Of a stretch of 64,000 nucleotides of DNA, positions 11,361-63,959 are shown piece after piece. The translations under genes and the position numbers were made by a program. The notes under the pieces are model-generated. The model saw only the letters and a program-made list of their open reading frames with translations, searched no databases and was not told the DNA's origin. Numbering within the stretch: position 1 is the stretch's first letter; the number at the start of each line of letters is the position of its first letter. Source of the DNA: Mobula hypostoma (lineage: Eukaryota); contig NC_086097.1 of the NCBI RefSeq assembly GCF_963921235.1, forward strand, positions 128,342,001-128,406,000, given 5' to 3'.

Positions 11361-11629
11361 GTTATGTTAGTCTGATGTGGCAATGAAGTGGAATAATCTT
11401 TGAAGAATTTTTATATTGCAACACAAACAGAAATAAACTGGGGATACAAAATGTTAAGGATAAACCATTGTGCATGTGACATTCTTGTCCAAAATTGGCT
11501 GGCTGAGTTTGAATTACCTGAACGAGAAAGTGTAGGTTATGCTGACTGATCAGACATACCAGAATAACCTGCAAGAAGATCTATGAAAACCCTCTCTATG
11601 GAGCAAAATCAATTGTTTCTTTTGGCATT

Positions 11630-12710
11630 GTGATGGGATTGGGTTTGCTGAACTTAAAGTTCTAAACTCAAACAAAAACCTTAAGCCTCTCCGACATGGA
11701 AAGCTATGCATACCCTCACTAAAAGAAGGTTATACTGTAACTGCACAATCTTTGAAAATTAGTTCACTTCCCTGTGTATTCTCTATGGTGAATTTAGCTG
11801 CCAATGTCCACTATTTGAATGGTGACCCCCCCCCCCTCCACCTTCCAAGCAAGGTAAAGATGCTTCCAGCTAACAAAGTGTTTAAGTGCAGTTTATTTAC
11901 TTTTAGTGATTCAGGTTTAAATCCAAGCAACATTTTTTAAAACACATTTAAATTCACAGATTATTTCTATCTTATACAATTTCCATATTACAAACCATTT
12001 ATAAAACACAAAGGATTACCAAAGCACAGGTACAATTCCTATAAGCTAAAAAGACATTGCATGAGCTATAGTTGAACCAGTCATCCATCAAGGAAATTCA
12101 AGGCAGAAGAATGGATTCTAGTTCACCCCCATGTTTCTGTCATTCTTTTAATGTTTCTGGACCATTCCTAATAAGCCTGAATTTCACTCCACATTTATAC
12201 TATATTTCTGCACTTGGGTAACTTCACACGCATATGATTTCTTTTACAGATACATTTCAACACAAGTGGTTTAAAAACTTCTGGAGTCAGAGCTTCCAGG
12301 TACCCACAATTAATGCTATGAAGCTAACTCTTTGAGCACATAAATCTTCTAACTATTAATAGATAGTAATATATACCAGTCTGGTCTTCCTCCTTAAACT
12401 AAATGACTTAGCCAGCATTGTCAAGTTTGAAACAAGTCCAATTAACATGGCCCATTGTCTTGCACTGCATCTCTTGAGCAATCAGTCCAAGTGCTGGTAA
12501 TCTATGGCAGTGCTTATTTGTAAAGCTGACTTTTTAACTTCAAACTGATTATTCCTTGCCAATTACATTAAGAACTGAAGACTGGCGCCTGTTAACGACA
12601 AGCAGCTAAACAAAGAGTATTAGTTGCAAGTTTCACTTACTCAAAGACAACACTTTGATCTTTATAAGCTCATAACTGCTGTGTTTAGAAAGCTGAGCTT
12701 GGCAAAAAGG
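11630..12710 (-). mobile_element. Second, diverged foamy-like ERV fragment: 5' LTR plus start of gag
   Basis: Colinear similarity to 60343-61470 (cttccagctaa(c/t)aaagt, cacaggtacaat, aagctaact(c)tttgagcacataaa, tttagaaagc). Minus strand encodes ...LKVFV*VRTLSSANPIPS, matching LKVFVRVRTSRSANPIPS at 60220-60468. Confidence 0.8.
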
Positions 12711-43330: not shown

Positions 43331-44686
43331 CTCTAGTTCACTGCACTGTGTAGTGATTTGATCTGTATGAACAGTATGCAAGACAAGCTTTTCGCTATAT
43401 TTTGGTACATGTGACAATAATAAAACAGTACCATGACCAAATTCAGGAAGATTGTGAAAATCATAATTTTATTGAATGGCGGAGCAAGCACGAGAAGTTA
43501 AATGATCTTCTCCTGAATTTATTTCTATGTTCTTTCTCTAAACGTTCTTTGAGTTGGTATTTAATTATTGACAATTATTTAATTTACACAGTTAAATGGT
43601 TTTGAATTCCAAAAGAAAGTATGGACCTTTATTTGAAAGTAATACTTTGCTGGGTTTCATAGCTGTTAGACATTTTCTGGGGCCGCCTTAGTACACAACC
43701 AGTGGCTCTGACACCATCCTGATTATATCACTGACATCCAAGCTGTTCTGGACAAATGTGATCAGTGTTCAGCTGCTGGACTGGGTGAGGATAGACATGG
43801 TGGGGCAACAGAAGACACACTGTAAAAATATATTTGTTAAGTTTTAAAAGGACATTTATTTCTAAGGCCCGAATGGGGTTGGGATAGGAACAGCTCCATT
43901 GTATTTAGAGCAAGTGCACTTCACAACTCAAGTGGACCTTTAAAGAAGCAAGTGATTGAAAGAAGGATAAGTAAATAGAAGAAAGTTGTACATTTGTATC
44001 TTGCCTTGTGGAACATTGCAAATTACTTTATGACTCTAAACCCTTAAAAGTAAAATGTATTTTGAGTATAATCACTGATGTAGCATAGGAAACACAACGA
44101 CCAATTATCACACAGAGAGCTCCCACAGACAGTCATCAAATAAAAGTCAAGGTCAAGTTTATTATCATGCAAACAAATACAAGTATGCACAGGTGCAATG
44201 AAAATCTTATTTGCAGCAGTATCACAGGTAAATAGTATCAGATACATAATACTCATAAGAAGAAAAGCATAGACATAAATTAATAAAAAATCACACAAGC
44301 AAGAACACAGTTAGGACAAAGAGAGTCTATTGTATTGTAAAATGATTAAAGTAGTCATAAGATTGCCTTACTACAGTAGTGAGCAATCTCATGACTATTA
44401 TGACTGCTAGGTTGGGCAGGTTGGTTAAAGAAGCAAATTGTTGAAGTAGCTGTCCTTGAACCTGGTGGTATGGGACTTCAGGTTTCTGTATCTCTTGACA
44501 AACTATAGCTGCAAGAAGATTAGAGAATATTGTTCTGGTTGCTGCTATGGGATAAACCCACTGAATTCTACGCAACCATCCAGAAGTGCCTTTGTGCTGC
44601 ATTTCCTTTCAACTACACATAAGCTTAAATTCTTGCACTCATATCTCTGGAACGGAGCCCAGCCTCATTAGCATGTGTACACAGTA

Positions 44687-45036
44687 GAAAGTTTACTTAC
44701 AACTGTTTGTGAATTTTCACATGGAAGCTGCTATTTAGAAAGCAAGCTTTGCAAACAGGAGATAGAAGCGGATATCTATCACACACAAAATAATCTGCAG
44801 ATGCTGGGATCAAAGCAACACTCACAACATGCTGGAGGAACTCAGCAGGTCGGGCAGCATCCGTGGAAATGATGAGTGGACGTTTCAGGCAGGAACCCTT
44901 CATCAGAACTGAAGAGGGAAGGGGCAGAGACCCTATAAAGAAGGTAGGGGGATGGTTGGAAGGCGAAGGCGTTCTCCTTCCAACCCTCCCCCCACCTTCT
45001 TTATAGGGCCTCTGCCCCTTCCTTCTATCTATCACA
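44687..45036 (-). repeat. 3' LTR remnant (first 97 bp, starting TGTGATAGATA), split by a Penelope-derived insertion
   Basis: 44687-44783 aligns to 61401-61497 with about 10 differences in 97 columns (manual count). Confidence 0.85.
44787..45025 (-). mobile_element. Penelope-derived insertion with hammerhead core and 14-bp TSD
   Basis: TSD tatctatcacacac at 44773-44786 and 45026-45039; minus strand CTGATGA-agggttcctgcct-GAAACGTC at ~44879-44906; internal inverted repeat gaagggg cagag..cctataaagaaggt / accttctttatagg..ctctgccccttc. Confidence 0.8.
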
Positions 45037-45058
45037 CACCACCCCACCCCACCCCCTT
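45037..45058 (-). promoter_or_regulatory. Polypurine tract of the provirus
   Basis: Minus strand aagggggtggggtggggtggtg immediately precedes the LTR start TGTGATAGATA. Confidence 0.7.
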
Positions 45059-45890
45059 GATTAGCCAGGATTTCTGACCCAGGCTATTGCGGAGAGTTTA
45101 AACTAGAATTGCTGGGGGGTGGGAATCAAACTGAAGAGATGGAGGAAGAGGCGGTTGGCTCACAAATAGAGAAAGCTTGGAGACAATGGGAAAGGGTGGA
45201 TAGGCAGGTGATAGAGAAGGGGCGCGCTCAAACTGATGGTTTGAGATGGATCTATTTTAATGCAAGGAGTATTATGAACAAAGTGGATGAGTTTAGAGTG
45301 TGGATCAGCGCTTGGAGCTCTGATGTTGCGGCCATAACAGAGACTTGGATGGCTCAGGGGCAGGAATGATTACTTCGTGTGCCAGGCCTTAGATGTTTCT
45401 GAAAGGACAGGACGGGAGGCAAAAGAGGTGGGGGCATGGCACTGTTGATCAGAGATAGTGTCACAGCTGCAGAAAAGGAGAAAGTTATGGAGGGATTGTC
45501 TACAGAGTCTCTGTGGGTGGAAGTTAGGAATAGGAAGGTGTCAATAACTCTACTGGGTTCTTTTTATAGACCACCCAATAGTAACAGGGATATCGAGGGG
45601 CAGATCGGGAGACAGATTCTGGAAAGCTATTATAATAACGGAGTTGTTGTGGTGGGAGATTTTAATTTTCCAAATATTGATTGGCATCTCCGTAGAGCGA
45701 GGGGTTGAGATGGGGTGAAGTTTCTTAGGTGTGTTCAGGAAGGTATCTTGATACATATGTAGATAAGCCTACAAGAGGAGAGGCTGTTCTTAATCTGGTA
45801 TTGAGAAATGAACCTGGTCAGGTGTCAGATCCCTCTGTGGAAGAGCATTTTGGAGATAGTGATCACAATTCTATCTCCTTTACCACAGAA

Positions 45891-46843
45891 GTCAAGTCAA
45901 GTCAAGTCAAGTCACTCTTATTTTCATTTCGACCATAACTGCTGGTACAGTACACAGTAAAAACGAGACAACATTTTTCAGGACCATGGTGCTACATGAA
46001 CAATACAAAAACTACACTGAACTGCATAAAAAAACAACACAAAACTACACTAGACTACAGACCTACCCAGGACTGCATAAAGTGCACAAAACAGTGCAGG
46101 CATTACAATAAATAATAAACAAGACAATATGCACAGTAGAGGGCAGAAGGTTGATATCAGTCCAGGCTCTGGGTATTGAGGAGTCTGATGACTTGGGGGA
46201 AGAAATTGTTACATAGTCTGGTCATGAGAGCCCGAATACTTCGGTGCCTTTTGCCAGATGGCAGGAGGGAGAAGAGTTTGTATGAGGGGTGCGTGGGGTC
46301 CTTCTTAATGCTGTTTGCTTTATGGATGCAGAGTGAGGTGTAAATATCTGTAATGGCGGGAAGAGAGACCCCGATGATCCCTTCAGCTGACCTCACTATC
46401 CACTGCAGGGTCTTGCGATCCGAGATGGTGCAATTTCTGAACCAGGCAGCGATGCAGCTGCTCAGGATGCTCTCGATACATCCTCTGTAGAATGTGGTGA
46501 GGATGGGGAGTGGGAGATGGACTTTTCTCAGCCTTCACAGAAAATAGAAACGCTGCTGGGCTTTCTTTGCTATGGAGCTGGTGTTCAGGGACCAGGTAAG
46601 ATTCTCTGCTAGGTGAACACCAAAAAATTTGGTGCTCTTAATGATCTCCAAGGAGGAGTCGTTGATTTTCAGCAGAAAGTGGTCATTCCGTGTCCTCATG
46701 AAGTCAATAACCATCACTTTTGTTATGTTCATATTCAGAGACAGGTTGTTGGCTCTGCACCAGTCCATTGCACCTCCGCTGCATCTCCTTTCTGTATGCT
46801 GACTCACTGTTCTTGCTGTTGTGACCCACCAAGGTCGTGTCAT
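45891..46843 (-). mobile_element. Rex1/Babar LINE 3' part nested in CR1
   Basis: [39 protein letters not shown]; (TTGAC)n tail; cagaa duplicated at 45886-45890 and 46844-46848. Confidence 0.88.
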
Positions 46844-47075
46844 CAGAATTGGAGAGGGATAGGAACAGACAAGTTAGGGAAACATTTATTTGGAGTAAGG
46901 GTAAATATGAGGCTATCAGGCAGGAACTTGGAAGAATAAACTGGAAACAGATGTTCTCAGGGAAACGTACGGAAGAAATGTGGCAAATGTTCAGGGGATA
47001 TTTGCGTGGTGTTCTGCATAGGTACATTACAGTGAGACAGGGAAAGGATGGTAGGGTGCAGTAACCGCGGTGTAC

Positions 47076-48632
47076 TTAAGGAAGTGCTTAAGGAAGTGGC
47101 CCAAGAAATAGTGGATGCATTAGTGATAATTTTTCAAAACTCGTTAGATTCTGGACTAGTTCCTGAGGATTGGAGGGTGGCTAATGTAACCCCACTTTTT
47201 AAAAAAGGAGGGAGAGAGAAACCGGGGAATTATAGGCCGGTTAGCCTAACGTCGGTGGTGGGGAAACTGCTGGAGTCAGTTATCAAGGATGTGATAACAG
47301 CACATTTGGAAAGCGGTGAAATGATCGGACAAAGTCAGCATGGATTTGTGAAAGGAAAATCATGTCTGACGAATCTCATAGAATTTTTTGAGGATGTAAC
47401 TAGTAGAGTGGATAGGGGAGAACCAGTGGATGTGGTATATTTGGATTTTCAAAAGGCTTTTGACAAGGTCCCACATAGGAGATTAGTGTGCAAACTTACA
47501 GCACACGGTATTGGGGGTAAGGTATTGGTGTGGGTGGAGAATTGGTTAGCAGACAGGAAGCAAAGAGTGGGAATAAACGGGACCTTTTCAGAATGGCAGG
47601 CGGTGACTAGTGGGGTACCGCAAGGCTCAGTGCTGGGACCCCAGTTGTTTACAATATATATTAATGACTTGGATGAGGGAATTAAATGCAGCATCTCCAA
47701 GTTTGCGGATGACACAAAGCTGGGTGGCAGTGTTAGCAGTGAGGAGGATGCTAAGAGGATGCAGGGTGACTTGGATAGGTTGGGTGAGTGGGCAAACTCA
47801 TGGCAGATGCAATTTAATGTGGATAAATGTGAAGTTATCCACTTTGGTGGCAAAAATAGGAAAACAGATTATTATCTGAATGGTGGCCGATTAGGAAAAG
47901 GGGAGGTGCAACGAGACCTGGGTGTCATTATACACCAGTCATTGAAAGTGGGCATGCAGGTACAGCAGGCGGTGAAAAAGGAGAACGGTATGCTGGCATT
48001 TATAGCGAGAGGATTCGAGTACAGGAGCAGGGAGGTACTACTGCAGTTGTACAAGGCCTTGGTGAGACCACACCTGGAGTATTGTGTGCAGTTTTGGTCC
48101 CCTAATCTGAGGAAAGACATCTTTGCCATAGAGGGAGTACAAAGAAGGTTCACCAGATTGATTCCTGGGATGGCAGGTCTTTCATATGAAGAAAGACTGG
48201 ATGAACTGGGCTTGTACTCGTTGGAATTTAGAAGATTGAGGGGGGATCTGATTGAAACGTATAAGATCCTAAAGGGATTGGACAGGCTAGATGCGGGAAG
48301 ATTGTTCCCGATGTTGGGGAGGTCTAGAACGAGGGGTCACAGTTTGAGGATAGAGGGGAAGCCTTTTAGGACCGAGGTTAGGAAAAACTTCTTCACACAG
48401 AGAGTGGTGAATCTGTGGAATTCTCTGCCACAGCAAACTGTTGAGGCCAGTTCATTAGCTATGTTTAAAAGGAAGTTAGATATGGCCCTTGTGGCTACAG
48501 GGGTCAGGGGGTATGGAGGGAAGGCTGGGTTCTGAGTTGGATGATCAGCCATGATCATAATAAATGGCGGTGCAGGCTCGAAGGGCCGAATGGCCTACTC
48601 CTGCACCTATTTTCTATGTTTCTATGTTTCTA
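47076..48632 (+). mobile_element. Young 5'-truncated CR1 with uninterrupted RT/C-terminal ORF (47048..48535)
   Basis: 495-aa ORF with [41 protein letters not shown]; (TTTCTATG)3 tail; tgtac duplicated at 47071-47075 and 48633-48637. Confidence 0.95.
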
Positions 48633-50808
48633 TGTACAAAGGCTGTTGTAAATCTAGTCAACAAGAAAAGAAAAGCTTACGAAAGGTTCAAAAACTAGGC
48701 AATGATAGAGATCTAGAAGATTATAAGGCTAGCAGGAAGGAGCTGAAGAATGAAATTAGGAGAGCCAGGAGGGGCCATGAGAAGGCCTTGGCAGACAGAA
48801 TTAAGAAAAACCCCATGGAATTCTACTAATATGTGAAGAGCAAGAGGATAAGATGTGAGAGAATAGGAGCAATCAAGTGTGACAGTGGAAAAGTATGTAC
48901 GGAACCGGAGGATGAATACTTCACTTTAGTATTCACTACGGAAAAAGATCTTGTCAATTGTAGGGATGACTTACAGTGGATTAAAAAGCTTGAGCCTGTA
49001 GATATTAAGAAAGAGGATGTGCTGGAGCTTTTGGAAAGCATCAAGTTGGATAAGTCACCGGGACAGGACGAGATGTACCCCAGGCTACTGTGGGAGGCAA
49101 GGGAGGAGATCACTGAGCCTCTGGCGATGATCTTTGCATCATCAATGGGGACAGGAGAGGTTCCAGAGGATTGGAGGGTTGCAGATGTTGTTCCCTTATT
49201 CAAGAAAGGGAGTAGAGATGGCCCAGGAAATTATAGACCAGTGGGTCTGACTTCAGTGATTGGTAAGTTGATGAAGAACATCCTGAGAGGCAGGATTTAT
49301 GAACATTTGGAGAGGCAGAATATGATTAGGAATAGTCAGCATAGCTTTGTCAAAGGTTGGTCGTGTCTTACGAGCCTGATTGAATTTTTTGAGGATGTGT
49401 CTTGTCTTAACACATTGATGAAGGTAGAGCAGTAGATGTAATGTATATGGATTTCAGCAAGGCATTTGATAAGGTACCCCATGCAAGGCTTATTGAGAAA
49501 GTAAGGAGGCATGGCATCCAAGGAGACACTGCTTTGTGGATCCAGAACTGGTTTGCTCACAGAAGGCAAAGGGTGTCTGTAGACAGGTCATATTCTGCAT
49601 GGAGGTCAGTGACCAGTGGTGTGCCTCGGGGATCTGTTCTGGAACCCGTACTCTTCATGTTTTTTATAAATGACCTGGATGAGGAAGTGGAGGGATGGGT
49701 TCGTAAATTTGCTGATGACACAAAGGTTGGGGGTGTTGTGGATAGTGTGGAGGGCTGTCAGAGGTTACAGCAGGACATTGATAGGATGCAAAATTGGGTT
49801 GAGAAGTGGCAGATGGAGTTCAACCCAGATGAGTGTAAGGTGGTTCATTTTGGTAGGTCAAATATGATAGTAGAATATATTATTAATGGTAACTCTTGGC
49901 AGTGTGGAGGATCAGAGGGATCTTGGGGTCTGAGTCCACAGGACACTCAAAGCTGCTATGCAAGTTGACTCTGTGGTTAAGAATGCATACGGTGCATTGG
50001 CCTTAATCAATCGTTCCCGGTGCTAGAAAAGGCTCTCTTTACTCTTTCCAATCCTATGCTCAAAAGCCCTCATTGGTACTTCCCAGTGTAGGATTTCCCT
50101 GTGCGATTTTCACGTTATAATACAGTATTCACTTCCTTAATCCTAGCTGGGACATGTTTTCCAAACCTCAAAGGAACATAACCATTATAACTTTCCATAA
50201 AGCTGCGACAATAACGCATCAATGTCCATTTTATAAGTACATATTAGTCCATCTTTAGAATCTCCTTCCCCACAAACTGTTCTTTCCAATTTCTTGATTC
50301 AAATCACTGTCTCAGTCGCCATCAGTTCATTCAGTCAGCTAGCAATATGTTTAAATCTGTTGAAGATAGTTAGTTCACCTCCTTCACAGGTGTGTTCACA
50401 TGGCTTTTAATGTAGTGCACGACTTTACTCAGATTTCCTGAAAACAAGTCTTGTAAATAAATTACTGATACTGTAGTGTTGTCTTCTTTTGCCTAAAGAT
50501 TAGTAATCTCACATCTTAATTATAGAAATTTATATCCATCAGTTACACGATTTCACAATGTAATAATATACATAAAAAATGAAACATTTACAAAAGTAAG
50601 GAAGAATACAGTTCTCCTGTTGAGAACTCAGTCTATACCTTTCATTCTAAGCTCCCAGAAAAAAACATGTCGCAATGTAAGAGTTGGTTTTGTCCCTCCC
50701 CTAGGAGTGAATACCCATCAGTATGCTGTAACTTAATATTCTAACACCAACCATACCATCTGCATGAGTTTCTTCCTATTTTCGTGATTTCAAACTCTAC
50801 ATATAATT

Positions 50809-50955
50809 GGAAAAGAGTATAGTCGACAATTTGGACCAAGACCCGAAACGTCGACTATACTCTTTTCCACAGATGCTGCCTGGCCTGCTGAGTTTCTCCA
50901 CCATTTTGTGTGTGTTGCTTGCATTTCTAGCATTTACAGATTTTCCCTTGTTTGT
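50809..50955 (+). mobile_element. Penelope-derived hairpin remnant
   Basis: Perfect 19-bp inverted repeat ggaaaagagtatagtcgac (50809-50827) / gtcgactatactcttttcc (50850-50868) around cccgaaacgtc. Confidence 0.75.
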
Positions 50956-51786
50956 GACTGATTGACATTTAATTCTTCCAGTCTTTCTCCTTCACTTTTT
51001 TTAAGGATTGGACCTAACTGAGAACTTTTGTGTTTACCCAGAAAACTTTAACTGAACAAGGACTAGTCAGTCTGTTCTGTCAAACCACAACCCATGGGAT
51101 TTTATAAATCTAATAATACAAATTGTTCTGGCAGTGAATATAACACAAATAGCACTAGTAATAGGCTTGGTGGTCCTTCTTGTTGTTTTGTAGGAGTACC
51201 ACGTACAAAATACATGCTTATACCTGAGTAACAAGTAAAAGACCCACAGACAGTTCTACCTTGTGACAATATCACACTTTGTAGACCTTGGAACTGTTAG
51301 GATTACATCTCCATTTCCAAAAGAAATCACAACAAAATAAATAAAAAGCTATCAGGAGAGTACTATGTCTCAGAGATAGCTATCTTTCTCCTTCTGTTAA
51401 GTCTTCCACCATTATGTATCATTACATAGTACAATAGATGGTTTTAAAATTCAAAGGAGTAAACCACGATGGAGTAATATCATTATTGGCAAAGAATAAC
51501 ACATATACAAAGTACATTATCTAAAATCTTAAGCACCATCTATATAAAAAGTTACCTTTGTTAAAAGGTAAATATGCAACATCCAAATAGGTAATTAAAA
51601 ATAACATTTATCAACTCATCTTTCCGTAGGATTGTAATATATTCGCAACAGACATATCCCAACCCCCAAAAGGATGAGGCGAGAAACATGCATGTTTGTA
51701 TGCAATGTTTGTGATCAGGATTAGGAAAAGGAGAGGAACAAGGATAACATGATCAGGGCAGTCCCTGTTCTTCACTTTCATGTCGC

Positions 51787-53075
51787 ACTCATCTCAATAA
51801 TAAGCAAATGCTTTGAGAGGCTGGTCAAGGATTACATCTGCAGCTTGCTACCACCCAAAATGAGCCCCCTACAATTCGCCTAATAACCCAACGGTCGACT
51901 GACGACGCAATAGCCACTGCTTGACATACTGTCCTTACACATCTGGAGAAGAAGAATGCTTATGTGAGAATGCTGTTCTTGGACTACAGTTCAGCATTCA
52001 GCACCATAGTTCCAATCAGGCTTGACAAGAATCTCAGAGACCTGGGCCTTGACCCTGCGTTGTGCAGCTGGATCCTGGAATTCCTGTCAGATCGCCAGCA
52101 GGTGGTAAGAGTGGGCTTCCTCATCTCCAACCCTCTGACTCTCAATACAGGAGCCCCTCAGGGCTGTGTACTGAGTCCCCTCCTTTACTCCCTGTATACC
52201 CATGACTGTGTTGCCACCCACAGCTCTAATCTGCTAATTAAATTTGCCAAAGACACCACATTGATTGGCCTTATCTCAAACAATAACGAAGTGGCCTACA
52301 GGGAAGAAATCACCTCTCTAACACAGTGGTGTCAAGAAAACAACCTCTCCCTCAATGTCGCAAAAACAAAGGAGCTGGTTGTGGATTACAGGAGGAATGG
52401 AGATGGGCTAACCCCTATTGATATCAATGGAGATGGAGTTGAGAGGGTAAACAGCTTCAAGTTCCTTGACATCCACATCACCGAGGATCTCATGTAATCT
52501 GTACACATCAGCTGTGTGGTGAAAAAAGCACAACAGTGCCTCTTTCACCTCAGACAGTTGTGGAAGTTTGGCATGGGCCCCAAAATCCTAAGGACTTTCC
52601 ACAGGGGCACAACTGAGAGCATCCTGACAGGCTGCATCACTGCCTGGTATGGGAACTGTACCTCCCTAAATCGCAGGACTCTGCAGAGAGTGGTGTGGAC
52701 AGCCCAGCGCATCTGTAGTTGTGAACTTCCTATGATTCAGGACAATTACAAGGACAGGTGTATAAAAAGCACCCATAGGATCATTGGGGACCCAAGCCAT
52801 CCCAACCACAATCTATTCCAGCCGCTACCATTTGGGAAGCGGTACCGCAGCATAAAAGCCAGGACCAACTGGCTCCGGGACAGCTTCTTCCACCAGGGCA
52901 TCAGACTGATGAACTCACACTGATTTGAGTGCACTCTATATTACATTGACTGTTCTATTTATTTTAAGTTATTATAAATTACTATGATTGCACATTGCAT
53001 ATTTAGATGGAGAGGTAACATAAAGATGTTTATGTATGTGAAGGATGTAAGAAATGAAGTCAATTCAATTCAAAT
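51787..53075 (+). mobile_element. Rex1/Babar LINE RT plus 3' end nested in the provirus
   Basis: [51 protein letters not shown]; (TCAAT)n tail. Confidence 0.92.
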
Positions 53076-53621
53076 TCAGGGTGAGGATGACCCAGAGGAA
53101 TAGCTAAAGAGGTAAGTAAGTGGCAGTGTATAGCAAAGCAGTTATACAAGAGATAACCCATGGTAGTGCTGATTAGATATGGGAGTTAACAAAGTCTCAG
53201 GAGTGGAGCCGTTATACAAAAAGCAGAAGTCACCAAACTTCCATCCTTGCAGTCTCCAGTGTCACTCTACAAAAAGAGCAATACAAAAACAATAATTCCA
53301 ATAGCCAAGGGAATTCTCCATTGGAAAATTGCAAAAAAAAATCTGTAACCCAATTTAAAGTTGTTCCAATCCACCCAGAAACTATTTGCTACCATGGAAG
53401 TTAAATGTGCAGCAGCTAGGAAGGTCTTAGCTATTGTTTCAACGTGAGCATTAAGCCAGCCAGGGGTTTAATATGAGTGTCCCAAGGAAACTTATGAAAT
53501 GATGTGCCTCACTCTTCCGGTTGTGTCAGTTCTGTGACTCTCATACTGTACAGAGAAATACTCTTTTAATTTGGTTGTGTTTCTTCTAGCCTTTGTTAAT
53601 AAATACCAAGTCCTATTAGAA

Positions 53622-53692
53622 CAACCTTTTTTGATGCCATGGACCAAAAACATTAAACAAGGGGTCTGTGGACAGCAGGTTGGGAATACCTG
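53622..53692. mobile_element. Small hAT-type MITE remnant within env
   Basis: caacctttttgatgccatggacc...ggggtctgtggacagcaggttgggaatacctg with hAT-like terminal sequence. Confidence 0.45.
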
Positions 53693-54074
53693 TTTCAGAA
53701 CATTCGTTGTTGCATCTGTCATAAATTGTTCCTTAAAACCGGACTTGCATTTCCATCTTGAGATACACAACATATTGTAGATTAAATTATCAAATTACTC
53801 CAAGGGTCATTTCCTTTGTAATCCTTAAAAAGTGAATGGTAATCAGATAACAGTATGTCTGAGCATCTTTTGTTATTGGAAATTTCCGCTCTCTAAGTGA
53901 ACCAAAGGATCACATCAGTACAGTTGTGAGAGTGAGCACTGCAAGGGCATAACTGTACGGGTAGTTTTATTCTAATAATTTTTGTTAAGAATCATGGAAG
54001 ATGTTTCGGGCGAATTGTTTTCTTGTGTCTCTCTGCCTGTTGGGACTGATGTGACTGAATACATAACAATAATT

Positions 54075-54498
54075 TCTTCTCTGTGGATTGCCACCTTGTC
54101 ATGATGGAGAAGCTTGTGTGGTCCTGTGGTCCTGAAAGCGATGCCGTCTGGAGCTATGCTCCTGGTAGTGTCACCCATGGTGGTAAGGTCAAGGGTGAGG
54201 TCCCTGACAAAGAACAATCTAACCAAGACCTCAACGGTGGAACAGGCGGACGAAGTTACTTCAAACTCAATGGCTGTGAAGGCGAATGAAGGCTGCAACA
54301 AAGCTATCAGCTCCAATCGTTGTGGTTTCCATGCCATTGGAATCAGTTGTTTGATTTGTGAAGTATCGTGTGCTTCTTGGAGTGCAACACCAAGTACATG
54401 TTAAACAAATACATGCAGAGGCATCTTCATTCTGTGGGCCACTTCTTCAGAATGAAGACCATCATCCATGACCTCGAGAGATAGCCACGACGACGACG
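54075..54498 (+). mobile_element. RTE-derived short internally deleted non-autonomous element
   Basis: 10-bp TSD aacaataatt (54065-54074, 54499-54508); RTE/Expander-like 5' UTR (gccaccttgtc..ctatgctcctggtag..cacccatgg..gacaaaga); (ACG)n tail. Confidence 0.72.
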
Positions 54499-55194
54499 AA
54501 CAATAATTGAAAGATTGTCTGTGTACGTAACATTGTCGATTTAGGAAGTAATGTTATCTGTGTAACCCCAACATCTAGTTTTATCAATTGGTGAGAAAGG
54601 ATCTACAGCAGTACTTTTCAATTGGTTTCCAAGAGTAAATTTTGTTTTAGGCTTATTTCCCTAATTTCCAACTCATAGTAGAAATCTCTCTGAAATATAA
54701 TTGAACTCACCAATAATTCAGAACTAAATTTTGTTGTAAGGTGTTGTTCGTACCACAGCATGACTGTTTGATTAAGAGCAAATATGGAATCTGGGTCAAT
54801 CCAATTGTTTTCGGGACTATAATCTCTGAAAAAGCTTATTGGACTTATCAATTCCAGTTGACCAGGGAGGAAAACATTTTAGCTTCACCTTAGCTTCTGT
54901 TTCAGTGCATCTTTCCATGCAAAAACCTGTATCAAGGGCTTTGCTGAAGCCTTTTAGAATAGAATCCGCAAATGCAGGAAATTGTCATGTTACCTTGACA
55001 TTTAACAATGGAGTGGAACAGTACCTGTAGTTGGAGAAATGGAAATGTCTAAAATCTTTGAGTAAGTATCTTCATATGCTTGTGCCTATAAAGGGAAAGT
55101 GAAATAAGATATCTGACTAATGAGAAATCTTCATTAAAATATTAAGGTTCATCACAATGTTCGAGTCTGGAAGTTCTATTGAGTGTTCCCATTA

Positions 55195-57023
55195 GTTTTG
55201 TTTGTTTTATGGGAGTTGGTTTTGTGACTGCTCCTTTATTATAGACCAAACATTTTTTCACAATTTAAAAAAAATTGCTTCCATCACTCAACATGTAAGG
55301 TCACCAGTATAACATGGCTAATTTCACTTGAGTGGCTTGTCTGCCATCATGATTCTGAATGAATCCTTGATGGACTTCTTGAATCAGTGCTTCCTGCTTG
55401 TGGGCAGGTGGGATTTGCCTCATCTTTTTTAGGACAGTATACCCAAGCCTTACCTTCACTTTCAGCGTCAAATTTATACTGTGTTGAAAATCCTCTGGAA
55501 TTGGGTTAGTAGTATCTAGGAGACTCTTAAAACATGATCCTGGTTAATTTTTTTATTTGTTACTTTGTTACTACCAAAACTTTGGCCTTCCTTGCTGTAG
55601 TCAAGTCCACCCTGTCATCTTGTTTTACACGTTTATTACCATGGCTGTATAGGAGGCCTGCAATATGGCCTGGGATGTATAACGCCTGTACTAATGGTCT
55701 AGTCAATAATAACTCATAATTATTCTTCCACGTGGACAAATGTGGAAGCAGTTTACCTCTGTGTGTTCTTCATCTGGTAGTTGGCCTGAAGGAAAAATCT
55801 CTTTCTATTGCATTCCTAAAATAATTAGAATCAGTACACATCAAGACTGGTCTGTTGCCTTTACTTACTTTAGACATAATTCTGGGGCTTTAGCCTCTGC
55901 AAGTTGAGCTGTATGATTCCCTAAAGGATGCACTTGCAAGTCGTTGTTCAAATTCAATTTCCGATAAAAATTTTCCTTTTATAATCAAAAGCAAGGATTA
56001 TCATTGAGTGGATTTATCTCTCTGGAGTTTCAGTGCTGATCTATCATAATACCATATTTGAGAACAGTTCTCAAAAGGATCTCATGCTATATTAGGTCAT
56101 AGCAATGTTTGTTCCACAGCTTCCATGAAAGATGCAAGTTATACGTCATAGCTCTCCGGAAAGTATTCCAGCTTTAGGGTGTCATCTTGTAAAAGTATTT
56201 GCCATTCTTGTATCCAGTAAGGGTAGCTCTCCATTCATTTGTTGGGAACTTGCTAATTCTTTAAAGTGACAAACTCTGTTTGTATAATAATTGGTTTGTC
56301 CCTTTGCAGTGGTCTTACAGCAATAAGCATATAGAAACCATAGTAAGACATTGTTCTAAGATAGTAAATTTCTGTTCCGTTGAGATGAAATTACATGAGG
56401 CATGGTGTATGGCTGCTTGTGTTTCTTCTCGCTCATTATAGCAGATGGCTGCAGCGGTTTATGGAGAAACACAAAATCGCAGAACAAAAGTTTTTGTTAG
56501 CTCCATTGTCTGAAGGTCTATTGCTTGCTGACCTGTATTCGACAATTTCTTTCATGTCTCATAATCTTTTGGATTTCCTCAGTTTCCATCTGTCATATAA
56601 TGTTTTTGACAATTGAGCATAGTCAGGTAAGAAAGCTCTAACATAACTCAGTAGGTCTAGGGCTGATTGTAAGGCTTTATGGTCTTTGGATATCCTACTT
56701 AAGCAATTTTTTGTCTAAATTCAGGGGTTAGACCACATCCCTGATTAGTAATTGTTATATTGTTATAACTATGGTACTTCTGTATGAGAGAGCTGAGATT
56801 TTTTTAATGTTAATTACATATCTTTCAAAGCTTATTAGTTAGTCTGTTACTTTCAAGAAGTGGGAGTGACCAGAAGCCATTGGCCAGATATGGGCACAAT
56901 TTAAACTTCTAGAAGTCAATCCTTGCTGCATTTGTTGTAATGTCTATTGCCGTATCAAAACAGCAGAGCTAATTTTGCCACCAGTACAAGCTAGGCATAT
57001 GGAAAGTCCAGTATCGTATTCAT
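55195..57023 (-). pseudogene. pol: Foamy-like pol (PR-RT-RNase H-IN N-terminus), with large internal deletions
   Basis: ATG 57023 MNTILDFP; PR-like FDTAIDIT; RT LANGFWSLP, YVINIKKS..ITNQGCGLTPEFRQK..KDHKALQSALDLLSYVRAFLPDYAQL, FISTEQKFTILEQCLT; RNase H PLGNHTAQLAEAKA (55895-55927), PVLMCTDSNY, LPHLSTWK, IPGH..GN; IN GFSTQYKF, IPPAHKQEALIQEVH..HDGRQATQVKLAMLYW*PYM..CEKC. Confidence 0.93.
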
Positions 57024-57391
57024 CAGATGGAGCATTTTGGATAGAGTTATTGCTAAAATTCTCCTGTGCATTTTTATTACATTAATGTTAGCCTTCTCCA
57101 TCTTTAGATTTTGTTTTCCCTGAGCTGCAGGGAAGAGAGTAGGTGTTTGGGACTGACCCTGTCCCTTTGTATATTTAGAGGGTGAAAGATGAGGTGCTCT
57201 TCATGGTGTGTGCTCAGTTGTAAATTCTTCTCCATAAAATATTCCCTCTATTCTCGAAGGAGCATCTTGATCTAAAACTTTCTTCTGCAAAGAAAGGTGC
57301 CAGAGCTAAAGGCTGTGGCATATACCTAGTGTCTAGCCATCCAGGTAGTGGGTGAATATCTCCTACCTAAGGCTGGCATTCTCCAGGGAAC

Positions 57392-57598
57392 CGTAAACAC
57401 AAAATACTCTGCAGATGCTGGGATCAAAACAACACTCACAACATGCTGGAGAAACTCAGCAGGTCGGCAGCATCCATGGAAATGATGAGTCGTCGTTTCG
57501 GGCTCCTGACGAAGGGTTCCGGCCCGAAACGTCGACTCATCATTTCCACGGATGCTGCCCGACCTGCTGAGTTTCTCCAGTGTGTTGTGAGTGTTGCT
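57392..57598. mobile_element. Penelope-derived inverted-repeat insertion with intact minimal hammerhead core
   Basis: 14-bp TSD attctccagggaac (57378-57391, 57599-57612); ~70-bp inverted arms; CTGACGA-agggttccggccc-GAAACGTC at 57506-57533. Confidence 0.82.
57500..57538 (+). ncRNA. Minimal hammerhead ribozyme motif (Penelope type)
   Basis: CUGANGA box, GGG/CCC stem II, GAAA box, palindromic ACGU stem-III stub and GUC cleavage triplet. Confidence 0.6.
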
Positions 57599-58339
57599 AT
57601 TCTCCAGGGAACGTTGTTTGGTTTGCTGATTATTTCTTCCCTGCTGAGGATCTTGTGTGGGAGAATGCTGTGAATGTGATTGAACCAAGGAATAAGGTTG
57701 GTCTGGTGACTTGGTTATGGACCCTACATGCCCTTTAGGGGGGAAAGGGGAGGATCCTGTGCTGGTATCTCATTGCCCTTGTGTGGGAATGAACGGTAAT
57801 CCTGCTACCACCACGTGCGTGCGTAGGATCTCAACAACCTGAAATTGCTCACGTATCAGGTGTTGATTAAGGGCTATTTCCACATGGTTAAAGGACTAAA
57901 GCGGTAAATAGAATGAACTTGGTCTCCACCTGCCCTTGTTATTTGTTCTCATTTTAAAAGCTGTTATTAAGCCCTGGCTTCCAACTATTTTAATCATACA
58001 GCACAAAATCCTCCATGTATATCTCCACCATTAATCTGCTTATAAATTCACTCATAGATCTGATATGGATTTCCACACTTATGTGAAGGTGGTACCAAGG
58101 CTATGGGAAATATTCATAATAAGAATTGCTGAATATGTTGGGGAGTTTCACTGGCCCAGAAGGCCTGCAGCCTCCTGGCATTCTGAAGCAGCCACTTCAG
58201 AACTCCTTCAGCATCAGCTGGAGGCATGGAACAGACTGCCTGCAAACTCTCTATAGTCCAAGGTCCAAAAACTTGATGGGGAAGCTGTTGTGGCTCTCTG
58301 TACAGGAACCTATCCATGTATTCTTATTTTACTGCTACA

Positions 58340-59730
58340 GTCAACCTTTTTTTTAAAAAAAAGGATGTAGGCAAAAGAAGGGCAACTATAGGCCAGTCAG
58401 CTTAACATCTGTAGTTGGGAAAATGCTTGAAGCTGTCATTAAGGAAGAAATAGCGAAATATTTAGAGAGGAGTGGTTCCATTAGACAGACATAGCATGGA
58501 TTCAGAAGGGGCAGGTCCTGTTTGACAAACTTACTGGAGTTCTTTGAGGACATAATGAGTGCAGTGGATAGAGGCAAGTAAGGTACAGATGCAAGGAGTC
58601 GGAGGAAGCGTATTGGCAGGGATAGTGGATTGGTTAACCGATAGAAGGCAGAGAGTTGGTATAAATGGGTGTTTCTCCGGTTCGCAGTCTGTAGTGAGTG
58701 GGGTGCCGCAGGGGTCGGTGCTGGGCACGCAGTTGTTTACCATTTACATTAATGATTTGGAAGAGGGGCCTGAGTGTAGCGCAGCAAAATTTGCCGATGA
58801 CACTAAACTAAGTGGAAAAGCAAATTGTACAGAGGATGTGGATAGTCTGCAGAGGGATATAGATAGGTTAAGTGAGTAGGCCAAGGTCTGGCAGATGGAA
58901 TACAACGTTGGTAAATGTGAGATCATCCATTTTGGAAGGAATAATAGAAGAGCAGATTATTATTTAAATTGTGAAAGATTGCAGCATGCTGTTGTGCAGA
59001 GGGACTTGGGAGTGCTTGTGCATGAAACGCAAAAAGTTGGCTTGCAGGTACAACAGGTTATTGATAAGGCAAATGGAATGTTGGCCTTCATTGCTAGAGG
59101 GATTGAATTCAAGAGCAGGGAGGTCATGCTGCGACTATACAGGGTACTGGTGTGGCCGCACCTGGAGGACTGTATGCAGGTCTGGTCTCCATATTTGAGG
59201 AAGGATATTCTGGCTTTGGAGGCAGTGTAGAGGAGGTTCACCAGGTTGATTCCAGGGATGAAGGGGTTAACCTAAGAGGAGAGATTGAGTCGCCTGGGAC
59301 TATACTCTCTGCAGTTCAGAAGAATGAGAGGGGATCTTATAGAAACATACAAAATTTTGAAAGGGATAGATAAGATAGAAGTAGGAAAGTTGTTTCCATT
59401 GGTAGGTGAGACTAGAACTAGGGGACATTGTCTCAAGATTCAGGGGAGAAGATTTAGGACGGAGATGAGGAGAAACTGTTTTTCCCAGAGAGTGGTGAAT
59501 CTATAGAATTCTCTGCCCAGGGAAGCAGTTGAGGCTTCTTCACTAAATATACTTAAGAAACAGTTAGATAGGTTTTTATATAGTAAGGGAATTAAGGGTT
59601 ATGGGGAAAAGGCAGGTAGATGGAGCTGAGTTTATGGACAGATCAGCCATGATCTTATTGAATGGCAGGGCAGACTCGATGGGCCAGGTGGCCTATTCGT
59701 ACTCCTATTTCTTATGTTCTTATGTTCTTA
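58340..59730 (+). mobile_element. CR1 LINE RT plus 3' end nested in gag
   Basis: [39 protein letters not shown]; (TTCTTATG)n tail; internal deletion near 58575. Confidence 0.93.
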
Positions 59731-60517
59731 ACATTTTTAATAATTCTAGTGCATTTTCCCAAGCAAACTGTTCTCTGGGCTTCATGAGTACCTCTCAGGT
59801 TTACTGGTGTGAGCACTATCTTACATGTGCCTTTAAATAATACATGATATCCCTACGAATCAGGATTAAGATATGGGTCACCAGGCTCTATCACATAAGT
59901 ATGTGGACTTCAACTGCGTGCTTGGTTTGTATCTAAACGGGGGCCAGTTTGTTGTCTCCAGCTACGAAATATGCTACATTGTTGGGATCTGGTACAAATT
60001 GTGATGGTCTGAGACCAGCAGGTCGTACAGCAGAATTTGGTATGTTTAATCTGCATCCTGCTCTATGTTCTATCCATTCATCATTCCAGTCTCTAGCCTC
60101 AAGAATGAAATATTCATCCACTTGAGGAGCAATCGGGGTAGTATCCTATATTTCTGTTATTCTGCGTATCGATAATATCAACCAGCATTTGCCTACTGAA
60201 AACCAGGATGTTGACCTTTTTATAATACTATGTGGTGTCCTGTAGCATTTATCAAGAACTGTCTGAGTTGGACTACTGCTAAACAATAATTCTTTCTAAA
60301 ATAATACTTTTGGTATAATGTGACCAAGTCGGGAGCCAAGTATGATGGTATTGGGTTAGCTGACCGTGAAGTTCTAACTCGAACGAAGACTTTAAGCTCT
60401 ATCTGATATATAATACCCATGAGTACGCTCACTAAAGGGAGATCAAATTGTAATGATCTAATCTTCAAAACCTAGTTTACTTCCCTGTTTATTCTCCATG
60501 GTGAGATTAGCTGCCAA

Positions 60518-61497
60518 TACTTACTATTCGAGCAGTAGGTCCCTTCTCCCTATGAAGGAGAAGATACTTCCAGCTAATAAAGTATTTTATTTACAGAGAT
60601 ACATGTTTAAATCCACACAATGCTCTTACAACACATTTAAAACATTCTAACTTAAACATTTCCCAACTAAAAACCATTTCTAAAATACAAACCATTTCCA
60701 GAGCACAAAGCATAAAGCATTTCTCAAACATAAAGGATTAAAGATTCCAAAACACAGGTACAATAGCTATAAACTAAAAAGACACACCAATAATGTAAAC
60801 AAACAGGTTGTCCATAGCAGAAATTGAAGCTGGTGGAATGGATTCTCATTCAGCCCTTGGTTCTTTCATGGCTTCCTGATGTTCTTTACCTCATTCTGAA
60901 TAAGCTTGAACCTCTCTTACATTTATCTCTGTGACTTGGGTGACTTCACAAGCATGTGATTTCCTCAGATATCCTTTTAACATAAGCAGTCTAAAACAAT
61001 TTTGGAAGACAAATTGTAGATCTTAGTTAGTTACAATTAATACTGTAAAGCTAACTTTTGAGCACATAAAACTCTTCAAACCATAACCACATCAGTTATT
61101 GATATGCTCAAAGATATTATCCATCTGGTTCTGCAAGCTACCTTGAACTAAGCAAACTAAGAGTCAGCCTGTCTGTTTGAAACAACCTAAATTAAATGAC
61201 TCTTTGTCTTATACTCTACTCTTGAGCAATAATAAAGCAGGTGCAGCATCTCTTTACAGAGATCTACAAAATAGAGAGCCTACTTGCATAGCTGTTCTAT
61301 AAAGAGTGCTTTTTAAAATCTCAAACTGCCTTCCATTTACATTTTAGGATTGAAGAAAAACTTCCACTTACAACCACAAGTTAAACAAAGCAATATAGTT
61401 GAAAGTTTACTTACAACTGTTTGTGACTTTTCAATGGGAAACTGATATTTAGAAAGCAAGCTTAGCAAACATGAGATAGAAGCAAATATCTATCATA
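60518..61497 (-). repeat. 5' LTR of the foamy-like provirus (~980 bp; 3' boundary tentative)
   Basis: First 97 bp shared with the 3' LTR remnant; whole length homologous to ~11805-12710; minus-strand AATAAA at ~60587-60592 conserved in both copies; followed by TGG. Confidence 0.72.
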
Positions 61498-61647
61498 AGC
61501 TCACTAGGAGTTGTCATTGCTACCTATGAATCAATGGCTGAATGTTTATTGCCTTCTTTCTACCTCACTTTACTCCAGAGATACTAAGGCTTTGATAAAG
61601 GTAGTAGTAACAATAGCAGCATTTGATGTCTCTGGGCCTGTCCTCGA

Positions 61648-62020
61648 TAGGCAGAAGTTCAGAAGGATGAGGGAGAATATTATTGAAACCTGCTGAATAC
61701 TGAAAGGCCTGAATACACTGAATGTGGACAGGAAGTTTCATTAGTAAGAGGGTCTGGGATCCAATGTCACAGCCTCAGAATAAAAGGATATCCCTTCAAC
61801 TGAGATGGCGAGGAATTTCTTCCGCCAGAGGGTGGTGAAATTGTGGAATTTGTTGCAACAGAAGACTGTGGAAGCCAAGTCATTGTGTATATTTACGGCA
61901 GAGGTTTATAAATTATGAGGAGAATTAAGGAGATAAGGCTTTAAAAAATCAGGATTATTGAATAGTGGAGGACACTCAAGGACCAAATAGCCTAATTCTG
62001 CTCCTACGTCTTACGGTCTT
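61648..62020 (+). mobile_element. CR1 3' end fragment
   Basis: KFRRMRENIIET, HSLRIKGYPF, RNFFRQRVVKLWN; 3' UTR gcctaattctgctcctacgtcttacggtctt. Confidence 0.8.
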
Positions 62021-63959
62021 TGCTAACATTAATAAGTAAAACGATTAACCTCCAAATGCAGGCCCTAAGACCTGAATCATAGTCAATTCCAAAAGTTGTC
62101 ATAATTATTTATCCAACTTTGCTCAGTAATTCAGGACTTACTGACATCAGAAATATGAATTTTTTTTATTGGAAATTAATCAGTGGAAGGAAATCATTGA
62201 TGTATTGAGCAGTGGACTGTTATTTTTAATCCAGGACAATTATTATGTCAAACCCACAGGCCGAAAAGTACAAAAAGTACTCATCTGTAGAGCATTTCTA
62301 GCAGAGGAACTGCAGGTGGAGGGTTGCGGCCAGGGGGTGGGGGTTGGTGTAGGTGGGGAAGCAAAGAGGAGGAAAGCAGAGTCTCCATTTCAAAACTCAT
62401 GCAAGTCTGCATCTGTGCTGACAATATATGAAAGCCCCGCCACATCACCTGCAGGCAAATTTCAAAAACTCTAAACCTAAGCATTAACTAAATTTGACAT
62501 ACAAAATCATCGGTAGTATGTGACTAATTTAGACAGCACAGGTGGGGGAACTTGCAAAGGAAACCTCCATCATTAAACAGACACAAGAATGTGAATTAGC
62601 ATATTTCTTATGATGAAGAAAGAGAAGTTGCAAAGGCAATATACAGAAGGAGTGATGTTCAGCAATGGAACAGGAGCAGCAATTATGAGTCCGAGTGGTT
62701 TAAGCTGGTTTAATACTAAGATATGCATGAGCACCTTCTAATCTGAATGGAAAGATAACCAAACAGCTCATTGCCTGTGGCTCTTATGATAAGGTACTGG
62801 CTTCAGTTCCTAAAAGTATTCATCAAATCTACACTGAAATGCAAAAATATACCAATCAAATCTGTATCGAATCCAATATCAAGTCAACATTTGAGTTGAG
62901 ATGATTGAATTGGCTTTGGCAATTCTTAAGTACTTTTAGACAATATTAAACAGATTTTGATAGCCTTTGTGCAGTTATTAATATGTTTATCTAAATTTCA
63001 GATAATCTTCAGGAATAGTGTGCCAATGATAAGACTTTTCTGGAGAACTAACTCTCTAGATTAATGATATATATTGTGTAGCAGCAGAGATTCAGAATAT
63101 GTTTCTGAAGTGTAAAGTATCTAAAATGCAAAGTGGAACTGTAATCTTCTCATCAATGTTCCATCAGCTTTTCTAGTCTCATTTTCTTGTCTCTTCCTCT
63201 TTGCATTCTCTTCCAAGATTTTTCAGTGAGACAACAAAGCAGCCTGATCTCCAAAGATGATTGACAGATGTCCAAATCAGTGTCAGTGTGCTTTGTTTTA
63301 ATTTGGCCACCAGTATTAATAATAGCTGCTGTTGATTGGTCTCTGACATGAAATGTTAGCTGGATTTCTCTTTTCAGAGGTGCTGCCTCATGTGCTGAGA
63401 ACTTCCATAATTTTCTGAATGTATTTCTGATCTCAACAAAATTTTTTATTATTGTTGACTAGTGTTGAAATGGTGTGTCTCATCCACTTGCCTATGGGCT
63501 GCAGTGGTGGTGGTAATGGGATGTGAAAATTCTGGCTGGTGACCATGGTTTTATCTAGAAGGCATGGGTTAAATAATGATTGGGGAGATGTTCAGAAATC
63601 TGGAAGGGCCCGTGAAATTTTATGGACCATCTTGGAGGATATGTGCCTTTCCTGGAACCACACAAATTTATGTTGTGTATCTTCGGGACAGAGTGTTTTC
63701 AATCCCTCCAGAGGCAGACACTTCAAACCAAGTGACATGCAGAAACAGTCATCCAGTTAAGACTGTCTAGGTGATGAGCAATGACCATATACTACACACC
63801 TAATTCTGGATTGTCTAATGCTGATAATTTCAAAATTAAAGCTGTACATTAGTCTTCCGTCTCTGTTTCCCACTAGGATAGCATTGTGGTTAAGTGAAAA
63901 TTTCTCCTGAATTAGTCCATTAATATTGCCATCTATGCTCTCTTGCAGTGTCAATATAT

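Follow-up and report, generated by a model that had tools for sequence, protein, structure and literature searches.

Does the heavily interrupted stretch of ray DNA considered here hold the remains of a foamy virus, and how much of such a virus is left? The window, a 64-kb stretch of contig NC_086097.1 of Mobula hypostoma, carries on its minus strand, at 44683-61497, an element whose coding remnants are scattered by stops and frameshifts over three frames. A first-pass annotation made from the letters alone had read this element as an ancient spumavirus provirus, rare, hidden and nearly fully organised. From searches of the window and of the 3.48-Gb assembly (200 contigs) it appears very probable that the locus is a dead minus-strand germline provirus, one of the many copies of an old family of foamy-like endogenous retroviruses (FLERVs). 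The spumavirus assignment is supported by Pol and by the primer-binding site (PBS), whereas similarity to foamy Gag, Tas and Bel2 is at noise and similarity to Env is weak. The description as nearly fully organised was too generous: the protease is undetected, the reverse transcriptase (RT) is gutted, the integrase core and the start of env are deleted and the 3' long terminal repeat (LTR) is truncated. There is no plausible present function for the window copy.

Relationship of the Pol remnants to foamy viruses

The motifs quoted earlier from a manual translation are present on the minus strand, namely PLGNHTAQLAE (55868-55978), PVLMCTDSNY (55773-55889) and LPHLSTWK (55563-55769), and furthermore HDGRQAT..LYW (55304-55543), GFSTQYKF (55350-55505) and LQSALDLLSYVRAFLPDYA (56562-56714). 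LANGFWSLP and ITNQGCGLTPEFRQK are likewise found in the translation, and the quoted motifs align to real foamy virus proteins. The reading CEKC stands in part, as one frame gives CEKM and a C..C pair is obtainable with a frameshift. The Pol protein of feline foamy virus (FFV) aligns to the window over residues 339-855 only, at 56820-55238, with 11 frameshifts and 10 stops; the amino-acid identity to foamy Pol is about 30% in the aligned pieces. This pol segment (55238-56820) comprises the RT thumb, the connection, RNase H and the N-terminal zinc-binding domain of integrase. It is preceded at 56843-57391 by the end of a gag-sized region and an RT remnant reaching to motif A (LANGFWSLP).

The three minus-strand frames, with stops written as X, were searched against 177,635 PDB sequences at E values up to 10. 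All retroviral matches are foamy: the protease-RT structures 7o24 (2e-12), 7o0g, 7ksf and 7kse, the RNase H structure 2lsn (0.11) and the integrase of prototype foamy virus (0.012). Chains of HIV, MLV, RSV and Ty3 are absent from these matches, and the one other entry, the hypothetical protein 1xuv (E 0.58), is unrelated. With Pfam, the three minus-strand frames of 49900-61600 gave Integrase_H2C2 only (E 4e-4, below the cut-off). The RNase H-integrase frame of a sister copy was compared with 1.84 billion protein representatives and yielded 14 matches, 10 of which were identified. Among these ten, the Pro-Pol of FFV (E 5e-7) is the sole named virus; the others are six frog or newt proteins (Pelodytes, Spea, Lissotriton), one fish RNase H protein, a 1687-aa polyprotein (P0003) and an RNase H cluster including a Pseudomonas-labelled member. 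The pol frame of the window itself found no match at E values up to 1e-3 in a 5.8-billion protein database, a scale too strict for so decayed a query.

The same distinction is seen in the alignment scores. By tblastn, seven foamy-type Pols (six named foamy viruses and one unnamed relative) reached summed scores of 36-194 bits in 48 of 49 reference-copy pairs formed with seven copies, the lone exception being the unnamed relative on copy C58. Two gamma-like and two dUTPase-type references scored 0 bits on all seven copies, and three of six Gypsy references gave a single match of about 36 bits each. In a frameshift-aware alignment (custom script) the foamy Pols scored 305-327 on the window, eleven non-foamy references 36-71 and shuffled or reversed FFV Pol 38-47. 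Six class I endogenous retroviruses (ERVs) of the same genome, used as a control, scored 1068-1115 with a gamma-like guide and 440-738 with foamy guides, and hence the method can separate the classes.

A maximum-likelihood tree of 36 rows and 537 columns (support given as ultrafast bootstrap/SH-aLRT) unites this family in one clade (100/99) with the foamy viruses, with sequences of amphibians and with the 1687-aa polyprotein. The family is monophyletic (100/100) and branches outside the newt sequences and a group of mammalian foamy viruses with frog sequences, a grouping supported at 88/77. The Gypsy references form a separate clade (100/100). When four class I ERVs were read by the same FFV-guided procedure, they joined the gamma-like references at 98, which argues against the choice of guide as the driver of the placement of the family. 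Neither the tree nor the alignment scores group Pol with Gypsy or class I elements, the outcome that the first-pass annotation had named as speaking against its own reading. The wide phylogeny of foamy-like ERVs which it had proposed is realised here for mammalian and amphibian references; published fish or chondrichthyan FLERVs are not among the rows. At the level of sequence comparison, a specific relationship to foamy virus Pol is shown for what is left of Pol here, from RT motif A through thumb, connection and RNase H to the integrase zinc domain.

Two frog proteins in the tree, P0001 of Pelodytes ibericus and P0005 of Spea bombifrons, are annotated as uncharacterised host proteins. They are placed inside the mammalian foamy clade (100/99, 12 rows) and look like endogenous foamy virus Pol fragments. 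P0003, encoded on an assembled contig of 10,956 nt, is an apparently complete Gag-protease-RT-RNase H-integrase polyprotein of 1687 aa. Its protease match is RVP-type, not A9-type, and in the tree it stands at the base of the foamy-like clade.

Layout of the provirus and forms of the family

Read on the minus strand, the element opens with an LTR and the PBS; a gag-sized region, the remains of pol and an env-sized region come next, and some 1.8 kb of further DNA lead to a polypurine tract (PPT) and the start of a 3' LTR. The order given by the first-pass annotation is thereby upheld, as are its 5' LTR, its PPT and its 1.8 kb of extra DNA, whereas the 3' LTR is reduced to about 110 nt. Homology to other copies begins abruptly at 61495-61498, which is the 5' boundary of the element (individual matches start at 61491-61498), and many of the matches to other copies stop at 60343, the inner end of the 5' LTR (genome probe 59850-62600). 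These homology bounds define a 5' LTR of 1,155 nt (60343-61497). It begins TaTGATAG and closes ..CA, the sister copies begin TGTGATAG, and the LTR termini fit TG...CA.

At the opposite end of the element, the low boundary of LTR homology lies at 44683. The remnant of the 3' LTR (44683-45036) is made up of 11 nt at 45026-45036 and of LTR positions 3-101 at 44683-44781; the remaining 1,050 nt or so were searched for through the window and not found. The stretch 44683-44781 forms with 61397-61495 the sole direct-repeat pair found, which is 99 nt long and 89% identical. The 3' LTR starts with TGTGATAGATA at 45036, directly past the purine tract at 45058-45039 (AAGGGGGTGGGGTGGGGTGG). This tract belongs to the last internal bases of the provirus (45037-45090), of which 45047-45090 are homologous to the stretch upstream of the 3' LTR in sister C2; in C2 as well as in C91 a purine tract is found at the equivalent place before the LTR.

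Four nucleotides past the 5' LTR, at 60321-60338, lies a decayed PBS of tRNA-Lys(CTT) type. It matches the complement of the 3' end of a host tRNA-Lys(ctt) gene at 12 of 18 positions; in four sisters the agreement at this same place is 11-13 of 18. Summed over these five copies, which are related and thus not independent tests, the matches amount to 59, whereas 1000 shuffles gave 39.7 on average and 58 at most.

The search for sister copies suggested at the outset was successful: other copies were found in the genome, and six of them were fetched and aligned to the window. All six are short-form and were picked by contiguous match, by which the sampling is biased toward the short form. The segments 60342-59742, 58351-57604, 57391-55190, 55168-54501 and 54074-53077 have the same order and orientation in six of six sisters, and 51778-51023 and 50809-50013 are colinear in all six as well; 45090-45037 is also family-derived. 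By position only, the leader and putative start of gag are assigned to 59742-60320 (colinear with the sisters) and a putative middle part of gag to 57604-58351 (colinear with five of the six). The Env-like segment (54501-55167) is homologous to a sister segment weakly matching foamy Env at residues ~340-410, and the distal part of the env-sized region (53077-54074) is again colinear with the sisters. The post-env region (50013-51778), also colinear, holds about 1.55 kb of family sequence and one insertion at ~50810-51022 that resembles a short interspersed nuclear element (SINE); the family DNA between env and the PPT sums to about 1.8 kb.

Two kinds of deletion have shaped the window copy. 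The junction at 55168-55190 marks a loss of about 1.6 kb that is restricted to this copy, as six of six sisters hold extra DNA at this place and at least four of them share ~1.3-1.7 kb of homologous sequence there. The deletion took the integrase core and C-terminal domain, which are readable in sister C71, and by spacing also covers roughly the first 300 codons of env. The other deletions are shared. From RT motif A (LANGFWSLP) the sequence passes to the thumb within about 15 residues; motifs B and C are gone, the ~200 nt encoding them being absent at 56845/56820. Compared with a long-form copy, the short-form lineage also lacks ~320 nt and ~650 nt upstream of motif A, and the gap of ~650 nt spans the RT fingers and probably the protease region. 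A genome search with a pol probe returned 14 places that run unbroken through the motif A-thumb junction and 9 matches that begin at it.

Long-form copies hold what the short form has lost. All four that were examined contain an extra 200-330 nt encoding LPQGFxNSP and a Y/F-x-DD-type motif; they align over FFV Pol 162-412, including motifs A, B and C, and one of them matches FFV 162-375 at 34% identity (E 3e-33) and RVT_1 with 49 bits. A family-wide loss of motifs B and C was considered and rejected in view of the nine matches starting at the junction and the motifs in four of four long-form copies. The long-form loci (L036, L037, L038 and L007) permit study of the family RT that the window copy has lost.

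The pol probe found at least 62 matching pieces of the same family with identities of 67-90% (71-78% for pieces longer than 600 nt) among the 40 candidates scored out of 369, which contradicts the notion of a rare, single hidden element. The family occupies about 40 or more scored places in the genome; the ratio of short to long forms, too, refers to the 40 of 369 candidates scored. A genome search with FFV Pol mostly returned better preserved retroelements, and no autonomous foamy-like relative surfaced in it, which does not imply absence. Six loci on other contigs that were examined (L030-L035) are class I ERVs with gamma/epsilon-like pol, three of which are 65-85% identical to one another at the protein level.

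Genes beyond pol, alternative readings and age

Several points weigh against the reading given here. Beyond pol, no foamy-specific gene is demonstrable in the window copy. A capsid-like Gag segment had been proposed for it, but similarity searches gave no Gag match, and the scores of foamy Gag and of P0003 Gag on the window are at or near the shuffled null. The profile searches suggested with that proposal (Gag_spuma, Spuma_A9PTase, Foamy_virus_ENV) returned nothing in the window. Gag_spuma_N and Foamy_virus_ENV of Pfam were also without a match genome-wide in a strict first look, a null that carries little weight since both gave nothing in 14 control genomes either. No protease (Spuma_A9PTase, RVP) was detected in the window, in the sisters or in two long-form copies, also when sought by alignment of FFV residues 1-200 and of the P0003 protease; the region is partly deleted in the short-form lineage, and the negative does not extend to the ancestral virus. 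The gag-pol junction is likewise deleted or decayed in this lineage. Similarity to Tas and Bel2 in the post-env region is at the shuffled null. The Env signal comes from sister copies alone and is missing in two of six copies tested, the window included. Furthermore, the frames used for the tree were picked with a foamy guide, a bias against which the class I control argues without removing it; the six sisters, all short-form, are an uneven sample of the family; and the mobilisation of the short form in trans, described below, is something that we infer.

At the start of gag, a 70-aa frame (59936-60145) has its counterpart in sister C91, where 194 aa are open; this longer frame had no meaningful PDB match, no usable Atlas match and no Pfam match. 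A CCHC knuckle was found neither in the window nor in the six sisters, and of three long-form copies one has a single low-complexity match. GR-rich stretches are missing from all ten copies, which are heavily decayed sequences. The gag assignment, made by position alone, is putative. No long open frame was found in the post-env region.

The indications for Env are found in the sister copies. Sister C2 matches Foamy_virus_ENV with E 0.0036 and 15.6 bits (cut-off 27) at profile positions 339-398, and the two best PDB matches of the C2 frame are the foamy Env structures 8rm1 (E 0.21) and 8ozh (E 0.29), both aligning in two colinear stretches. When six foamy Envs are aligned locally, the alignments stop at Env residues 380-411 in five of six copies, and in four of six the scores (residues 380-437) exceed the maximum of 12 shuffles. 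The counterpart in the window (54820-54984) scores 51 against a null maximum of 52. Further downstream, the frame 53270-53467 ends in a hydrophobic, membrane-span-like tail (..WRIPLAIGIIVFVLLFL, then a stop) without a family match, which may represent the transmembrane subunit.

With so little to recognise beyond pol, the family might be assigned instead to class III ERVs of ERV-L type or to another non-foamy retroviral lineage, the foamy likeness of its RNase H and connection domain arising from comparison with few outgroups. Such an assignment gains from the make-up of the tree, whose rows include neither a labelled ERV-L, epsilonretrovirus or lokiretrovirus nor a published FLERV of fish or sharks, a point that bears on the foamy placement as well, and from the weak or missing similarity of Gag, Env and accessory regions to foamy viruses together with the undetected A9 protease. 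It is nevertheless unlikely. FFV is the sole named virus among the 10 identified of the 14 matches drawn from 1.84 billion representatives, a set in which such lineages should be represented, and the two dUTPase-carrying ERV Pols lie outside the 100/99 branch and score at noise on the window. Moreover, the tRNA-Lys type of the PBS is also that of most foamy viruses and of teleost FLERVs according to the accessible text of PMC5512871, and the weak Env matches are foamy and colinear.

The Pol scores likewise leave very little room for a Gypsy-type (Metaviridae) LTR retrotransposon with an env-like frame: five Gypsy Pols reach 42-71 on the window, compared with 305-327 for foamy Pols and 38-47 for shuffles, the Gypsy references form their own 100/100 clade, and past the connection domain there is a retroviral-type RNase H aligning to foamy protease-RT structures. 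Its appeal lies in the unrecognisable Gag and in the top genome matches of FFV Pol being other retroelements, although all six that were classified are class I; we consider it highly improbable. A chance juxtaposition of unrelated repeat fragments could be suspected where more than half of 16.8 kb is repeat material and the LTR pairing is just 99 nt long. Such an origin is scarcely conceivable, however, as the segments outside these repeats recur in one order and orientation in six independent copies from other contigs; the LTR, PBS and PPT are placed as a provirus requires; and the two LTR pieces are 89% identical to each other, compared with 62-79% for the LTR pieces of other copies.

If the element is a FLERV provirus, as preferred here, a foamy-like retrovirus would have entered the germline, and a deleted genome devoid of the RT active site would then have arisen. 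This short-form genome would have been copied to many places with proteins from complete relatives, as the shared deletions and the dispersed places suggest; lacking the catalytic motifs, short-form copies could presumably not have reverse-transcribed themselves and were probably mobilised in trans. The window copy would afterwards have decayed, taken nine insertions of repeat elements and lost about 1.6 kb and most of its 3' LTR. A more specific proposal, which we hold tentatively and would not quite call probable, is that the family represents an undescribed ray FLERV lineage that branches below the foamy viruses of tetrapods and numbers dozens of copies, among them the multiplied sublineage without an RT active site.

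The age of the integration was approached in two ways. In the LTR pair, 11 of 99 positions differ (Jukes-Cantor distance ~0.12), which corresponds to ~60 million years at 1e-9 per site per year and to ~270 million years at 2.2e-10, the rate assumed for the elephant shark in the accessible part of Han 2015 (PMC4422223); with so wide a range of rates the absolute age is very uncertain. The other approach uses sequencing runs of other organisms. Runs labelled organism B contain 51-57% of the sampled words of the locus, and organism B contigs, which differ from it by 1-2.6%, bridge the junctions of the provirus with neighbouring repeats on either side at 57569-58411 (SINE/ERV and ERV/LINE, the latter a long interspersed nuclear element). 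Contigs of organisms C and D differ by 7-9% from the locus; an organism D contig covering 54991-55752 crosses the copy-specific deletion. Paralogous pieces in the same genome are less alike, with at most 78% identity where they are long and 83% where they are short. The contigs of organisms B, C and D are for this reason read as the orthologous locus, and both the integration and the ~1.6-kb deletion are accordingly dated, in so far as the contigs represent that locus, to before the splits from organisms B, C and D.

Foamy-like fossils are already known in sharks and other fish, and this locus is a useful, unsurprising addition. FLERVs have been described in 28 species, among them one chondrichthyan, the elephant shark (CmiFLERV; Aiewsakun and Katzourakis 2017, PMC5512871), and according to the accessible text of that paper the argument that retroviruses arose in the sea in the Palaeozoic builds on fish FLERVs. 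ERV-Spuma.0-Sca of the small-spotted catshark was reported after 12 chondrichthyans, Amblyraja radiata and Pristis pectinata among them, had been screened, and is the only element named in the accessible part of that source (PMC10699275). Foamy-related ERVs of a 'clade Tu' are said, in the portion available, to infect jawed vertebrates generally (PMC6001957). CmiFLERV and ERV-Spuma.0-Sca were compared with the present family by their published descriptions. No paper on foamy-like ERVs of rays was found in the literature searched, which omits most subscription journals and repeat databases.

As in described FLERVs, Pol of this family clusters with foamy viruses outside the mammalian clade, the LTRs are long, and env is separated from the 3' LTR by extra DNA, which in FLERVs holds 'acc' genes and here shows no long frame. 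The tRNA-Lys-type PBS is shared with the teleost AciFLERV and AliFLERV, in addition to most mammalian foamy viruses (PMC5512871, accessible text). The ray family differs from FLERVs in being multicopy with a deleted short-form sublineage. Exogenous foamy viruses such as FFV and prototype foamy virus show the same thumb, connection, RNase H and integrase zinc domain, a PBS for tRNA-Lys(CTT) and the same order of gag-sized region, pol, env-sized region and further DNA. In contrast to these viruses, the present element is endogenous, dead and deleted, its Env similarity is marginal, and no similarity to the A9 protease, Gag_spuma, Tas or Bel2 is detectable.

Deleted ERV forms can outnumber complete ones, as exemplified by the common pol- and env-deleted form of HERV-H. 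The short-form sublineage resembles this case in its shared internal deletions, which remove the RT catalytic motifs and leave 14 places contiguous across the junction; it differs in that copying in trans is here inferred. With it, a foamy-like genome has spread in spite of being defective; the window copy itself is functionally unimportant.

Ancient co-divergence of viruses with their hosts has its textbook case in the foamy viruses. From chondrichthyans few examples have been published, namely those of the elephant shark and one catshark element. To these, the genome of a further cartilaginous fish with a multicopy family would add data, with some copies retaining a complete RT and at least one integration common to several organisms. 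Such a shared integration permits dating by presence and absence, free of the uncertain substitution rate. If the family does represent a ray lineage of its own, integrations common to several species could give independent minimum dates for elasmobranch foamy-like viruses.

Nested insertions and a second LTR in the window

LINE and SINE material makes up more than half of the 16.8-kb span. Nine LINE/SINE-type insertion events were counted, one fewer than the minimum of ten given previously, on the basis of absence in the sisters, Pfam matches and four sequencing runs, whose contig joints and repeat depth are consistent with the insertion boundaries. Nearest to the 5' LTR, a plus-strand LINE 3' fragment (58352-59741) of high repeat depth, not found at this place in the sisters, matches RVT_1 with E 6e-5, below the Pfam cut-off. 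It is followed at 57392-57603 by a SINE-like repeat assigned to repeat families D4, D5 and D7, likewise absent from the sisters. An unclassified high-copy repeat of high depth and without a Pfam match is inserted at 54075-54500, where sisters C21, C71 and C58 do not contain it, and a plus-strand LINE fragment at 51779-53076 (RVT_1 E 3e-15) is again missing in the sisters.

The largest block is a plus-strand nest of non-LTR retrotransposons at 45091-50012, recognised by Exo_endo_phos and RVT_1 of Pfam and by contig joints. One LINE in it, with an endonuclease and a 499-aa RT frame, is interrupted by a fragment of a minus-strand LINE (45886-46847), and another LINE occupies ~48633-50012. The joints 45885/46848 and 47070/48633 are present in contigs of four runs; as the contigs of all four join 45885 to 46848, the LINE itself was split by another insertion. 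The 499-aa RT frame (47036-48535, plus strand) is free of stops and belongs to a very abundant LINE (RVT_1 E 1.5e-34). Next to the nest, a SINE-like insertion of 243 nt (44782-45025), flanked on both sides by the duplicated TGATAGATA, splits the opening bases of the 3' LTR. Pieces nearly identical to this repeat recur at 57397-57503 and, in reverse orientation, at 50842-50957.

On the minus strand at 11628-12706 the window contains a further, separate LTR of this family. It is about 1.08 kb long and 68-75% identical to the LTRs of other copies. A displaced 3' LTR of the provirus, 32 kb away, was considered for it and rejected, as it is 68% identical to the 5' LTR, compared with 89% for the true pair, and has its own LTR 5' part. 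With no family internal sequence adjoining it within the window, it is probably a solo LTR.

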